Assembly: GCA_016932615.1 (NCBI GenBank)
Contig: JAFGCN010000018.1
Location: forward strand, 3,495-67,494
Source of the DNA: Candidatus Aenigmatarchaeota archaeon
GTDB lineage: Archaea; Aenigmatarchaeota; Aenigmatarchaeia; QMZS01
Direction: 5' to 3'
DNA: 64,000 bases
Position 1 is the first letter of the stretch, and each line of letters begins with the position of its first letter. Positions 29,554 to 42,372 of this stretch are shown piece by piece. The notes below the pieces were generated by a model. It worked only from the letters and a program-made list of their open reading frames with translations. It did no database searches and had not been told where the DNA came from. Position numbers and translations under genes: made by a program.

Positions 29554-29982
29554 ATGGGAAAAAGCAAAGGCAGTTATTGGGTGGAAGTTGGACACCGATT
29601 CGACAGAGAGCCGGAATCTGTCCGCAAAATATCCTCTGCAAAAGGTCCCCTACAACTGAATCTTTATCAGATACCCCCCTCCTTGAAGGAGGCAAACAAA
29701 ATACTCCGGGGGGAAAATGGCAGAGGGGCAGGGACCCATTTGGGGACAAGATACCGAATAGAGTGGACAGGAAATGGTCCCGCGTCTGCTGTGCATGGAT
29801 ATATCCTTGACGGTAGCGGCGAACCTTATCCCGCAATAGAGTTAACTCTCCCAAAAACAACCCTTGGACCCAACAATCTTGCCACCGTCGGGCGGGCGCT
29901 TTTTGATATGGATGGGCGGTTGAGAGACCATATTGAACAGACACAAGTTTACAGAGGAAATAAACTACCCTCTGCCTTTTAA
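29554..29982 (+). CDS. hypothetical protein
   Basis: 142 aa. Its composition is more protein-like than that of the antisense ORF. An A/T-rich box (aagtataaatac) lies about 30 nt upstream. Confidence 0.4.
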   Translation: MGKSKGSYWVEVGHRFDREPESVRKISSAKGPLQLNLYQIPPSLKEANKILRGENGRGAGTHLGTRYRIEWTGNGPASAVHGYILDGSGEPYPAIELTLPKTTLGPNNLATVGRALFDMDGRLRDHIEQTQVYRGNKLPSAF

Positions 29983-30000
29983 GAAATCATCTATTTTTAT

Positions 30001-30374
30001 GGGCCCGTAGCTCAGTCCGTATCCCTTTCTTTCCAAAAGAAAGGTCTAAGGGTCACCCCAAAGAAAGGGTTTCCCTTGGCTAATTTGGTCAGGAGAATAG
30101 GATACGGGAGCAATTTGGATAGAGCGCTTGGCTTCGGTTGAGCCCTTTTCTCGCGAGAAAAGGTTTCAATCCCAAAAGAGGCATATTCCTGCTTCGCAGA
30201 AAGAATGCCTCAGGGGAAGGACTTGTTCAGCCAAAATGCCTGCATTCGTCCAGAAGTATCAGAAGGTACCAGGAGGTCGGGGGTTCAAAGTCAGGCTTTC
30301 TTTCTAAAGAAAGAACGCCCGACACCTCTAAGAAAGAACTCTTCTTGGAGAAGATGAAAATCCTCCCGGGCTCA
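30001..30374 (+). tRNA. tRNA-Arg(TCG) interrupted by three introns
   Basis: Exons are approximately 30001-30016 GGGCCCGTAGCTCAGT, 30115-30137 TTGGATAGAGCGCTTGGCTTCGG, 30268-30289 ACCAGGAGGTCGGGGGTTCAAA and 30361-30374 TCCTCCCGGGCTCA. Joined, they give a 75-77 nt cloverleaf. The acceptor GGGCCCG/CGGGCTC has one G-U, the anticodon stem is CTTGG/CCAGG, the T arm is GGGGG-TTCAAAT-CCTCC, and the anticodon TCG is at 30134-30136. Confidence 0.85.
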
Positions 30375-30381
30375 TTTTTTT
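30375..30381 (+). terminator. oligo-T tract directly after the tRNA-Arg 3' end
   Basis: ttttttt immediately follows the discriminator A. Archaeal RNAP terminates on T-runs. Confidence 0.4.
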
Positions 30382-30435
30382 AAAAAATTTGACATATGCC
30401 AGATTCCTTCAGAACGACAATTTGAGAGTGGGTTT

Positions 30436-30495
30436 TTCTTTGGGGTTGTCAGCCCTTTCTTTTTAGTGAAACTCCCGGAAAAGAAAGGTATGACC
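30436..30495 (-). repeat. solo copy of the tRNA-intron hairpin element (subfamily 1)
   Basis: ttctttggggttgtcagccctttcttt..(loop insertion)..aaagaaaggtatga is the reverse complement of the TCATCC-CTTTCTT-loop-AAGAAAGG-TCTGACAACCCCAAAGAA consensus. No tRNA exons surround it. Confidence 0.7.
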
Positions 30496-30556
30496 CCGGG
30501 CTTATATTTTAAAAACTGCAACCGAGGAAAACACACAAAAATACCCCTTAAGCAGT

Positions 30557-30606
30557 TTTCTTCTGGGGTTGTTAGACCTTTTCTTTTTCTAAAGAAAGGG
30601 GCTGAC
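30557..30606 (-). repeat. second solo copy of the tRNA-intron hairpin element (subfamily 1)
   Basis: ttcttctggggttgttagaccttttctttttctaaagaaaggggctgac has the same block order as the 30436-30495 copy. Confidence 0.65.
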
Positions 30607-30633
30607 TTTTAAGCTTTTAATCCTGAATTATCT

Positions 30634-30927
30634 ATGAAAAAGGAGGCAAAGGACCAATCAACCGAGGAAAAGGTCGCCCAATTGATGAAAAATTATGAAG
30701 CTTATGCTGACGAGGAGGGAATCCGGCTCAACCCAAACAAGGTAATCGTCGAGGCGGTAATCCGGCGGCTCGTCCATAACGAAAATATTTACGGCTGCGC
30801 CTATTGCCCCTGCCGGAAAGTCACCGGAAAAAAGGCGGAAGACAAGAAAATTATCTGCCCCTGCATATTTCACAGGGACGAAATCCGGGAAAAAGGCCAT
30901 TGCCACTGCATGCTGTTTGTAAGGTGA
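30634..30927 (+). CDS. ferredoxin-thioredoxin reductase catalytic-subunit-like protein
   Basis: CAYCPCR...IICPCIFH...GHCHCMLF is the CPC-x-CPC-x-CHC cysteine pattern of FTR catalytic chains. Confidence 0.7.
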   Translation: MKKEAKDQSTEEKVAQLMKNYEAYADEEGIRLNPNKVIVEAVIRRLVHNENIYGCAYCPCRKVTGKKAEDKKIICPCIFHRDEIREKGHCHCMLFVR

Positions 30928-40130: not shown

Positions 40131-40468
40131 GCGGGGGTCGCCAAGTCTGGTCTCATCCCTTTCTTAAAAGAAAGGTCTTACAACCCCAAAGAACGGGATA
40201 CCAGAAAAAGGTGCAAGGCTTAGGTGTCTTACCGGCACCTGCAGGTGCAATGCCCAGGAGCTTGGCTGAGAAACCTTGTGGGTAAATCTTTTTCTTTGGA
40301 AAAGAAAAAGCTTTAATCCAAAAAGAAATAAGATTCCACAATAGTCCCTACGTGAGTTCGAATGAAGCTTTTTCTCGCAAGAAAAAGCTCCAGGACCAAA
40401 AAGAGGCAGTTTCACCGCTTCGCGGATAAAACTTGCCGAATTGGTTTACGAAAGTCTCACCCCCCGCA
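40131..40468 (+). tRNA. tRNA-Leu(TAG) interrupted by three, and apparently four, intervening sequences
   Basis: Exons are approximately 40131-40152 GCGGGGGTCGCCAAGTCTGGTC, 40203-40224 AGAAAAAGGTGCAAGGCTTAGG (anticodon TAG 40221-40223), 40273-~40285 ACCTTGTGGGTAA, ~40336-40362 ..CCACAATAGTCCCTACGTGAGTTCGAA and 40455-40468 TCTCACCCCCCGCA. The acceptor GCGGGGG/CCCCCGC is perfect, the anticodon stem is CAAGG/CCTTG, and the T arm is GTGAG-TTCGAAT-CTCAC. Boundaries of the variable-arm insertion are uncertain. Confidence 0.8.
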
Positions 40469-40990: not shown

Positions 40991-41515
40991 ATGAGACCTG
41001 AAATCGACTTGATTCCCCTTGATAATGTAGACCAAACGACCGTCGAGGAGCTTAAGCGCTCTCTCAAGGAGAAAGGGTGCATTGTACGGCTTTATGCAAG
41101 GACACACAGCCCTAAAACGGCAGAGAACCTCTACAGAAAGCAGTGCCTTGTAGACGTGATTGTCGACGCCCTGAAGGGGCTTTCAGGAAAGGTCATCGCC
41201 ATAACAGACAAGGACCTATACTCAAACAAGCTTAATTTCGTATTTATGTCGGTCCAGCCAAACGGGCCTGTAGTCCTTTCTACCCATCGGCTAAGGCCGG
41301 AATTTTATCAGGAAAGGCCGAACAATGACCGGACAACAAGCCGTCTCCTGAAAGAAACAATCTACTGCATAGGAAAGATGAATGGGATTGGTGACTGCCC
41401 TAATCCCAGGTGCATAATGCACAAGTCCGCTTCAGCCAGGGACATAGACTTCAAGTCCGAGGAATTCTGCAAGGACTGCAAGATAAACAATATTGTAGAC
41501 AATATGAGATTATGA
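40991..41515 (+). CDS. archaemetzincin (M54)-like protein lacking the HExxH catalytic motif
   Basis: VIAITDKDLYSNKLNFVFMSV...VLSTHRLRPEFY... is collinear with AmzA. The canonical HExxHxxGxxxC-x4-CxM-x16/17-CxxC site reads YCIGKMNGIGDC-PNPR-CIM-...-CKDC. The Cys4 site is kept, but H, E and H are replaced by Y, C and K. Confidence 0.65.
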   Translation: MRPEIDLIPLDNVDQTTVEELKRSLKEKGCIVRLYARTHSPKTAENLYRKQCLVDVIVDALKGLSGKVIAITDKDLYSNKLNFVFMSVQPNGPVVLSTHRLRPEFYQERPNNDRTTSRLLKETIYCIGKMNGIGDCPNPRCIMHKSASARDIDFKSEEFCKDCKINNIVDNMRL

Positions 41516-42372
41516 GCGCAAAAAAACAGTCCGGAACAAAGAAAAGAGCAAAGGCTGTCGACTTTGAGGAAAGTGCAAGTTTTTCCGAAGAGGAAGAAAC
41601 TGCAGAGGTTTTGAAAAGCGCCAAAAAGCCAAAGGGCGTGAGCAAAAAGAAAGAAACCGGGGCAAAGACAAAAAAGGCCAAAGCTCAGGAAGAAGCCACC
41701 ATTGACGAAGAATTTGCTGAAGAACGGGATGATGATTCCGGTGAGGAAGAAACAGACGAAGATTACGGGGAAGGAGATTACGACGAGGCAAAGCCAAAAG
41801 TATTCCAGGAAGAGCCGTTTTCAAAAGCCCCAAAAAAAGTCTATTCCGGAAAATTCTTTGAAAACAAAGTCCACATCTGGGGAAAGCAGGACGCCGAGGA
41901 GATTTATGACCTTGGCTGCTTTGGAAAGGTAGACGAGGAAAAAAATGAGCTTTCCTTTGAGGAAGCCCTTTTGCTGATGAGGCGAAACAAGCTTCGGGTT
42001 TCAAAAGATGGCACGGAGGTAAGCTCTGAAGAATTCTACCAGATTGCCTGCAATGCCGACAAAGAGTTTCCCTGGAAGTTCAAGGTTTACGAGGAGCTTA
42101 GGGGAAGAGGCCTTCTTGTCAGGACTGGCTTCAAGTTCGGCACCCATTTCAGGGTTTACGGCAGGGGAGTCAAGCTGAAGAGAGGGCCAAAGTCAGTAAA
42201 GGAGCACACAAAGTGGATTGTCCATGCAGTCCCCGAGAACTACACCTGCTCATTTCCAGAGCTTTCCAGAGCCGTCCGGCTGGCGCACAACATCCGGGCA
42301 AAGATGCTCTGGGCAGTTGTTGACGAGGAGGGAGATGTGACCTATTACGAGGTTTTAAGGAAGACTCCTTAA
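41512..42372 (+). CDS. endA: tRNA-splicing endonuclease EndA with a roughly 110-aa K/E/D-rich N-terminal extension
   Basis: The C-terminal GLLVRTGFKFGTHFRVYGRG...KEHTKWIVHAVPE...LSRAVRLAHNIRAKMLWAVV carries the EndA catalytic Tyr/His/Lys contexts. The N-terminus is MSAKKQSGTKKRAKAVDFEE...KKKETGAKTKKAKAQEE...DDDSGEEETDEDYGEGDYDE. Its ATG overlaps the upstream stop (ATGA). Confidence 0.85.
   Translation: MSAKKQSGTKKRAKAVDFEESASFSEEEETAEVLKSAKKPKGVSKKKETGAKTKKAKAQEEATIDEEFAEERDDDSGEEETDEDYGEGDYDEAKPKVFQEEPFSKAPKKVYSGKFFENKVHIWGKQDAEEIYDLGCFGKVDEEKNELSFEEALLLMRRNKLRVSKDGTEVSSEEFYQIACNADKEFPWKFKVYEELRGRGLLVRTGFKFGTHFRVYGRGVKLKRGPKSVKEHTKWIVHAVPENYTCSFPELSRAVRLAHNIRAKMLWAVVDEEGDVTYYEVLRKTP

Follow-up and report, generated by a model that had tools for sequence, protein, structure and literature searches.

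In a stretch of 64,000 nt from the genome of a Candidatus Aenigmatarchaeota archaeon (contig JAFGCN010000018.1; hereafter the window), positions 30001-30374 of the plus strand hold what is, with high confidence, a single functional gene for tRNA-Arg(UCG) of an Aenigmarchaeota archaeon, interrupted by three introns whose removal by protein enzymes is predicted from the sequence. When the pieces 30001-30016, 30115-30137, 30268-30289 and 30361-30374 were joined, a product of 75 nt was obtained, which ARAGORN folded into a canonical tRNA-Arg(tcg) cloverleaf. The first-pass annotation, which had read this locus as a tRNA-Arg(TCG) in four exons, was thus right about the anticodon, the number of introns and their three sites, and its estimate that about 80 percent of the gene is intron agrees with the count (299 of 374 nt, 80%). 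The introns interrupt the tRNA at 15/16, 37/38 and 59/60, the first and last of which are non-canonical positions, so the gene is a multiple-intron tRNA gene. This gene structure is of a known kind; the lineage is one in which it has hardly been described.

Gene structure and splice junctions

The spliced tRNA has an acceptor stem of 7 bp (including one G-U pair), a D-stem of 4 bp (GCTC/GAGC), an anticodon stem of 5 bp (CTTGG/CCAGG) and a T-stem of 5 bp (GGGGG/CCTCC) with the T-loop TTCAAAT. U8, G18, G19 and the discriminator A73 are present, CCA is not encoded, and no stem-breaking change is found in any exon. According to the ARAGORN fold, combined with the analysis of bulge-helix-bulge (BHB) motifs for exons 1 and 3, exon 1 (30001-30015) carries the 5' strand of the acceptor stem, U8 and A9, the 5' strand of the D-stem, A14 and G15, and exon 2 (30114-30137) carries the remainder of the D-loop (TTTGGATA), the 3' strand of the D-stem, the 5' strand of the anticodon stem and the loop CT-TCG-G. 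Exon 3 (30268-30289) carries A38, the 3' strand of the anticodon stem, the variable loop AGGTC, the 5' strand of the T-stem and TTCAAA, while exon 4 (30361-30374), which is conserved in the orthologues, supplies U60, the 3' strands of the T-stem and acceptor stem, and A73. A split or permuted tRNA gene is ruled out, since all four exons follow one another in order on the same strand, within 374 nt.

The junctions were assigned by the rule that two 3-nt bulges flank a 4-bp helix and that each bulge is cut behind its second base. This cut rule agrees with the anticodon-intron pair of canonical introns. Foldability of the junctions into BHB motifs had been proposed as a test of the gene in the first-pass annotation, and all three junctions form the motif. 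In intron 1 (98 nt, 30016-30113, D-loop site 15/16), the central helix is GCTC:GAGC, the bulges are AGT and AAT, the inner helix has 8 bp (CCGTATCC:GGATACGG) and the outer helix has 1 bp. Intron 2 (130 nt, 30138-30267, canonical site 37/38) shows the central helix CTTC:GAAG, the bulges GGT and GTA, an inner helix of 3 bp and an outer helix of 5 bp formed by the anticodon stem. For intron 3 (71 nt, 30290-30360, T-loop site 59/60), the corresponding elements are TTCA:TGAA, the bulges AAG and AAT, an inner helix of 2 bp and an outer helix of 5 bp formed by the T-stem. Under the strict hBHBh' definition, with flanking helices of at least 2 bp, introns 2 and 3 are strict and intron 1 is relaxed owing to its 1-bp outer helix. 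In each case the 3' end of the intron holds a decoy of an exon strand, namely GAGC for the D-stem, GAAG pairing with the anticodon-loop bases 32-35, and TGAA for the T-loop.

The boundary given earlier for intron 1 (30017-30114) is one base off the BHB cut, which places the intron at 30016-30113. The mature RNA is identical with either boundary because 30016 and 30114 are both T, and the D-loop reads AGTTTGGATA in both cases. In the unconstrained minimum-energy fold of the precursor, the acceptor stem forms and so does the whole BHB of intron 1, including the 8-bp helix that had been noted as closing this intron. When only the acceptor, anticodon and T stems were enforced, all three 4-bp central helices formed and the three 3' bulges were unpaired.

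No trace of the gene is found by standard tools. ARAGORN reported zero tRNA genes in the whole 64-kb window, Rfam at the gathering threshold reported zero families there, tRNA included, and Rfam at E<=10 gave no tRNA match in 29950-30420, only weak unrelated matches. In its unspliced form, the gene is invisible to both programs. A group I or group II self-splicing intron was rejected, since no Rfam ribozyme family was matched at the threshold in the window or at E<=10 in 29950-30420, and the introns are only 71-130 nt long. A C/D-box guide RNA within the introns was also rejected, the single Rfam match having E=9.

At 30001 the gene starts with GGGCCCGTAGCTCAG on the plus strand, and it ends with TCCTCCCGGGCTCA. 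Directly after A73 follows a run of seven T (30375-30381, plus strand), a putative archaeal-type terminator, and upstream, at -24 to -15, lies the A/T-rich box TTTTAAGAAA (29977-29986, plus strand), a putative archaeal TATA/BRE element; both were read from the sequence. The orthologues have A/T-rich boxes upstream at similar distances, and most of them have a T-run 3' of the gene.

The construction by itself was evaluated with a SPLITS-like pipeline, in which all BHB candidates were combined into chains of up to three introns, spliced and submitted to ARAGORN. Among 1000 dinucleotide shuffles of 29950-30420 (471 nt), a three-intron tRNA was obtained in 3 and a two-intron tRNA in 3, which gives a P-value of about 0.006 from the pipeline alone, and the run on the real genome also yielded clearly spurious tRNAs. 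As this significance is only moderate, the case rests on the comparison with relatives.

Orthologues, covariation and copy number

The class I lysyl-tRNA synthetase (LysRS) encoded by the linked lysS gene has its best matches in metagenome-assembled genomes (MAGs) named Candidatus Aenigmarchaeota or Aenigmatarchaeota. The order lysS, tRNA, FeThRed_B (ferredoxin-thioredoxin-reductase beta) and M29 peptidase is the same in the congeners G001 and G002, and the linkage of lysS with the tRNA is retained in six named Aenigmarchaeota MAGs, while a lysS-linked search in other DPANN phyla revealed no linked tRNA-Arg(UCG). The M29 peptidase was discarded as a synteny probe, as it led mostly to distant taxa (Woesearchaeota, Saccharibacteria, Fibrobacteres), whereas lysS worked.

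Orthologues were identified in 14 related Aenigmarchaeota genomes, where the 15 nt of exon 1 recur with 0-2 mismatches, and their intron subsets differ. In G001 and G002 introns are present at 37/38 and 59/60 and the D-loop is uninterrupted (AGCTTGGATA); the orthologues of G004 and G007 have introns at the same two sites. In genus g2 the 59/60 intron is always present, a D-loop intron occurs in some species, and an intron at 37/38 is never found, the uninterrupted anticodon loop reading CTTCGGATCCAG. The orthologue in G024 has a single intron of 20 nt at 37/38 and an uninterrupted T-loop (GGGGGTTCAAATCCCTCC / TTCAAATCC), while in every orthologue of family f1 examined the 59/60 intron is present. 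Because of these differing subsets, uninterrupted relatives show each exon join directly, and for each of the three sites there are intron-less alleles. The D-loop-intron genes of genus g2, when spliced by the BHB rule, give the exact sequence of intron-less sister species; on the sequences compared, the rule is validated in this lineage by these pairs of species with and without the intron.

The exons are 85-87% identical to those of G001 and G002 without gaps, while introns 2 and 3 show 50-57% identity with indels, about the same as the flanking DNA (for the intron 2 counterparts at the same site in the two congeners, 50-53% with indels). Compensatory changes were detected in stems whose strands are separated by introns, namely C-G to U-A at 27:43, G·U to C-G at 51:63 and C-G to U-A at 6:67. 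This pattern indicates that selection acts on the exons and not on the introns.

These comparisons bear on whether the four-piece cloverleaf might be a chance construction, or an assembly chimera formed through a repeated intron module. Free choice of junctions does yield multi-intron 'tRNAs' from about 0.6% of the shuffled regions of 471 nt as well as spurious matches in the genome, and the first 50 nt of intron 1 occur at six other places in the genome with 80-91% identity. Against both origins stand the syntenic orthologues in 14 genomes, with their conserved exons, covarying stems and variable introns. In addition, all 79 of the 79 31-mers sampled from 29900-30700 are present in one sequencing run (possibly the assembly's own source), and the tRNA-Lys and tRNA-Arg genes have no shared stretch at the junction of intron 1 and exon 2 long enough for a switch. 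For practical purposes this alternative is refuted, with almost no probability left to it.

No second or intron-free tRNA-Arg(UCG) gene was found in the genome, a metagenome assembly of 1.26 Mb in 29 contigs with 96.9% completeness, by exon 2 search, ARAGORN or BHB census. A search for exon 2 with up to 3 mismatches allowed gave no other place in the genome. Plain ARAGORN reported no more than two uninterrupted tRNA candidates genome-wide, and neither is Arg(TCG); with canonical introns allowed it reported eight genes, none with the anticodon TCG, and the Rfam tRNA model at threshold matched six places, none at this locus. A BHB census that required an outer helix of at least 2 bp missed the gene because of the 1-bp outer helix of intron 1, and a relaxed census recovered it, as its one tcg gene, together with spurious matches. 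The first-pass annotation had asked whether an intron-free copy exists elsewhere, and the outcome is the one it expected. CGA codons are used at 2.4 per 1000 in this genome, and in Archaea CGA is decoded by the UCG anticodon. Because only one tcg gene was found, CGA codons are used and UCG reads them, removal of all three introns is very probably essential.

The census, which allowed up to three introns per gene, detected about 30 plausible tRNA genes, nearly all of them interrupted. The commonest site was 59/60, which was found in the genes for Arg GCG, Gly CCC, Asn, Gln, Met, Asp, Ile and His and in three Val genes. In the window, tRNA-Leu(TAG) (40131-40468, plus strand) and tRNA-Leu(CAA) (45780-45427, minus strand) each appear to have three introns. 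One follows GTCTGG in the D-loop, one interrupts the anticodon loop and one follows TTCGAA in the T-loop (59/60), so that all three T-loop introns of the window share one site, as had been observed before. The two leucine genes were not recovered by the census, probably due to relaxed motifs and a long variable arm. At least one further gene with three insertions (D-loop, anticodon loop and T-arm) was observed on another contig (C19:6236-6027, minus strand), with the anticodon loop CTTATAA and the anticodon TAT.

Splicing enzymes and the proposed pathway

The only splicing endonuclease gene found in the genome is EndA, encoded in the window at 41512-42372 of the plus strand, with one match each to PF01974 and PF02778. 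The protein is of the alpha type, with one N domain and one catalytic domain. A second homologue or subunit was not detected in six-frame searches of the 97%-complete genome at E<=1 with both Pfam domains and at E<=10 with the EndA protein. Among structural relatives, it is most similar in sequence to the alpha4 enzyme of M. jannaschii and the alpha subunit of N. equitans. The span from the catalytic Tyr to the catalytic His is 6 residues longer than in M. jannaschii (1a79) and 8 residues longer than in the M. kandleri alpha unit (5x89), and the His is preceded by the basic insertion KLKRGPKSVK. The ARMAN-2 enzyme and the alpha subunit of N. equitans have this insertion too, GVKLKRGPKSVKEH corresponding to GVIPKKGKRSEREH of NEQ205 and to a similar stretch of 4fz2. 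From the text of PMC5829648, we infer that this insertion corresponds to the L3 loop. At its N terminus, EndA is extended by about 110 aa (41512-41840) that are K/E-rich and probably disordered. This extension is confined to g1 and a part of g2; in the rest of the class, the protein starts at about residue 100-115 of the EndA described here. A gene for the RtcB ligase is present as well (PF01139 match at C10:3857-5161).

With these enzymes, the tRNA-Arg(UCG) gene would be transcribed as a precursor of about 374 nt, in which introns 1 and 3 begin after exon strands (GCUC of the D-stem and UUCA of the T-loop) that would pair with the decoys GAGC and UGAA at the intron 3' ends, while the decoy GAAG of intron 2 would pair with anticodon-loop bases 32-35. 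Each junction would then adopt the BHB fold, with a 4-bp helix between two 3-nt bulges, a homo-oligomeric alpha-type endonuclease would cut after the second base of each bulge, RtcB would ligate the four exons, and CCA would be added later.

In the first-pass annotation it had been stated that such a gene needs an endonuclease with relaxed BHB specificity. This applies to intron 1 only, with its 1-bp outer helix, and not to introns 2 and 3, which are strict 3-4-3 motifs with outer helices of 5 bp. In the texts of PMC3239211 and PMC5829648, classical alpha4 enzymes are reported to require a strict BHB motif, and the outer helix of intron 1 consequently weighs against a gene that is spliced in full. 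On the same side stand the unconstrained fold, in which the BHB of intron 1 alone appears and those of introns 2 and 3 do not; the literature, where no published assay of an L3-bearing alpha4 enzyme was found; and the fragmentation of the assembly, a gap in which could hide a second tRNA-Arg(UCG) copy. No RNA sequencing run was found to contain the locus, two metatranscriptomes from the same study had zero contigs on it, and the DNA contigs that matched were for the most part paralogous copies of the intron module; this outcome is neutral as to expression.

A rival explanation is a young pseudogene, inactivated by a recent insertion into the D-loop, in which introns 2 and 3 are spliced, intron 1 is not removable by an alpha4-type enzyme, and CGA is read by a copy missing from the assembly. 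It would fit this explanation that both congeneric orthologues have no intron 1, that its outer helix has 1 bp, that only one alpha-type EndA was found, and that the incomplete assembly also has no recognisable tRNA-Lys(CUU). However, intron 1 shows no flaw in its 8-bp inner helix, its 4-bp central helix or either of its 3-nt bulges, several g2 species have same-site D-loop introns with outer helices of only 2 bp in an otherwise intact gene, and the two leucine tRNA genes of the window likewise have D-loop introns. Moreover, the intact stems of all four exons and the L3-like insertion in EndA argue against loss of function. A pseudogene is therefore considered very unlikely, and a functional gene from which all three introns would be removed is preferred.

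Outside family f1, a different set of endonuclease genes was observed. Three genomes of the same class (G020, G023 and G029) have two endonuclease homologues each. The two genes are neighbours on a single contig in G029 and in G020, where one copy has an internal stop, and lie on different contigs in G023. In the f1 genomes searched, one homologue or none was found, so subunit architecture varies within the class.

Three introns per tRNA gene is given as the published maximum in the texts of PMC3239211 and PMC4033280. The multiple-intron tRNA genes of Thermoproteales (Sugahara et al.) resemble the gene described here in having three BHB introns in one collinear gene, one at 37/38 and two at non-canonical positions, in being missed by standard finders, and in a very high genome-wide fraction of interrupted genes. 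They differ in the crenarchaeal host and in an (alpha-beta)2 enzyme with a Crenarchaea-specific loop, whereas the present host is a DPANN archaeon with a single alpha-type EndA and its introns are long (71-130 nt) and contain a conserved structured module. In ARMAN-2, T-loop introns at 59/60 of pre-tRNA-Cys(GCA) and pre-tRNA-Pro(GGG) were cut in vitro by the epsilon2 endonuclease (Fujishima et al. 2011, PMC3239211); the site, the DPANN host and the place of the insertion in the endonuclease catalytic unit are shared, but the ARMAN-2 Cys intron has 13 nt and a relaxed hBH motif and is served by a three-unit epsilon2 enzyme, while intron 3 here has 71 nt and a strict motif, and the enzyme is of the one-unit alpha type.

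The text of Kaneta et al. 2018 (PMC5829648) places L3 in alpha4-type EndAs of several DPANN lineages and links it to increased tRNA gene disruption and incomplete tRNA predictions. The present genome agrees with the lineages described there in its single alpha-type gene, in an insertion in the C-terminal region common to Nanoarchaeum and ARMAN-2, and in a tRNA set that standard tools cannot predict. That text maps the association, and neither the genes nor an assay of an L3-bearing alpha4 enzyme was found in it, while this locus provides a concrete set of substrates; the EndA here also differs by its K/E-rich N-terminal extension. In Atabeyarchaeia and Freyarchaeia, 92-95% of tRNA genes have at least one intron and over half have several (Valentin-Alvarado et al. 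2024, PMC11291895). Interruption is near-universal in the present genome too, with its two uninterrupted ARAGORN candidates, but those lineages belong to the Asgard superphylum and not to DPANN. The same distribution of introns over three arms is found in a eukaryotic nuclear tRNA gene served by the heteromeric Sen complex, which implies no relationship. No published description of multi-intron tRNA genes in Aenigmarchaeota was found in the literature.

Origin of intron 1 and the intron module

The positional orthologues of G001 and G002 have no intron 1. The entire intron can be aligned with the one in the D-loop of the tRNA-Lys(CUU) gene of G001 (34/35, 26/28 and 31/37 bases identical, with one indel of 50 nt), which corresponds to about 90% identity in the aligned blocks. 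In G002, the tRNA-Lys(CUU) gene has a shorter D-loop intron (41 nt), to which the two ends of intron 1 can be aligned, and exon 1 is identical between tRNA-Arg(UCG) and tRNA-Lys(CUU). The first 50 nt of intron 1 are also found in the anticodon intron of tRNA-Cys(GCA), besides other sites. Near-identical intron sequence thus occurs in tRNA genes of different identity, as is the case for transposed or paralogous introns. The presumed donor, tRNA-Lys(CUU), was not found in this assembly when its anticodon arm or its 3' end, as they read in the congeners, was searched for with up to 2 mismatches.

Two histories are compatible with this distribution. Intron 1 might be ancestral in the tRNA-Arg(UCG) of the genus and have been lost in the lineage of G001 and G002, as some g2 species carry a D-loop intron at the same site of tRNA-Arg(UCG), and as the module within the intron is conserved everywhere, so that high similarity need not imply recent transfer. 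However, the g2 D-loop introns, with their AAAACTGC/GCAGTTTT-type stem (GAAACTGT/ACAGTTTT in L038), are only 21-36 nt long and show no relationship to intron 1 in sequence, and over the same species split the orthologous introns 2 and 3 have diverged to 50-57% identity, against about 90% between intron 1 and the tRNA-Lys(CUU) intron of G001. For this reason, a recent copy from tRNA-Lys(CUU) to tRNA-Arg(UCG) is favoured as the probable origin of intron 1, while ancestral presence followed by loss appears rather unlikely. With a copying event, it should be kept in mind that the similarity may overstate recency, the inner module being conserved wherever it is present, and that this assembly has no recognisable tRNA-Lys(CUU) gene.

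Intron transposition was named by Fujishima et al. 2010, as summarised in PMC4090602 and PMC4033280. As far as those summaries describe the cases, the present one resembles them in a near-identical intron in tRNA-Arg(UCG) here and tRNA-Lys(CUU) in the congeners, and in related modules at different tRNA positions. It differs in that intron-less orthologues of the recipient are known in the same genus, so that the event can be dated within the genus, and in that the donor copy is missing from this assembly.

Each of the three introns contains a hairpin with a pyrimidine arm and a purine arm (30025-30066, 30145-30179 and 30298-30336), 7-9 nt past the 5' splice site, and 10-15 nt beyond the hairpin a purine tract that mirrors the purine arm; this pattern was found in 1-5% of shuffles per intron. 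The geometry would fit a purine-motif triplex.

Modules of the intron type were also observed outside complete tRNA genes. The spacer between the tRNA and the ferredoxin-thioredoxin-reductase gene (30400-30633) contains two intron-type hairpin modules in opposite orientation (GGGGTTGTCAG..CTTTCTTT..AAAGAAAGG..ATGAC). In a related strain represented in sequencing run X2, 30386-30627 is skipped and 45 other letters stand instead, and in G001 and G002 the open reading frame begins about 50 nt past the tRNA, so this 240-nt spacer segment is a recent insertion. On another contig (C27:22312-22433), the complete gene for tRNA-Val(CAC) is preceded, at a distance of about 120 nt, by an orphan copy of its first 13 nt (GGGCTCGTAGTCC) and an intron-type module after them, which look like a duplicated 5' exon with its intron.

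A broader reading of the locus can be put forward tentatively, at a little under even chances. It starts from a one-subunit alpha-type endonuclease with an L3-like loop in a genome where nearly every tRNA gene is nevertheless interrupted. Intron 1 would have been caught just after moving from tRNA-Lys(CUU) within the genus, the introns would be vehicles of a conserved structured module, and the loop insertion, not subunit architecture, would license their spread.

For this organism, annotation pipelines would report a crippled translation system, since standard finders give two uninterrupted candidates in a 97%-complete assembly; resolving such genes shows that the tRNA set is present but hidden. 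The orthologues of the same genus that have no intron 1, together with the look-alike in tRNA-Lys(CUU), provide a datable example of probable intron gain. One transcript combines two strict sites, the canonical one and that of the T-loop, with a relaxed one in the D-loop, so the locus is a testable substrate for the point raised in the text of Kaneta et al. 2018, whether an alpha4-type endonuclease with the DPANN 'L3' can cut non-canonical, relaxed BHB introns. If the broader reading is true, the spread of introns in these archaea would be licensed by a loop insertion and not by the subunit architecture of the enzyme.

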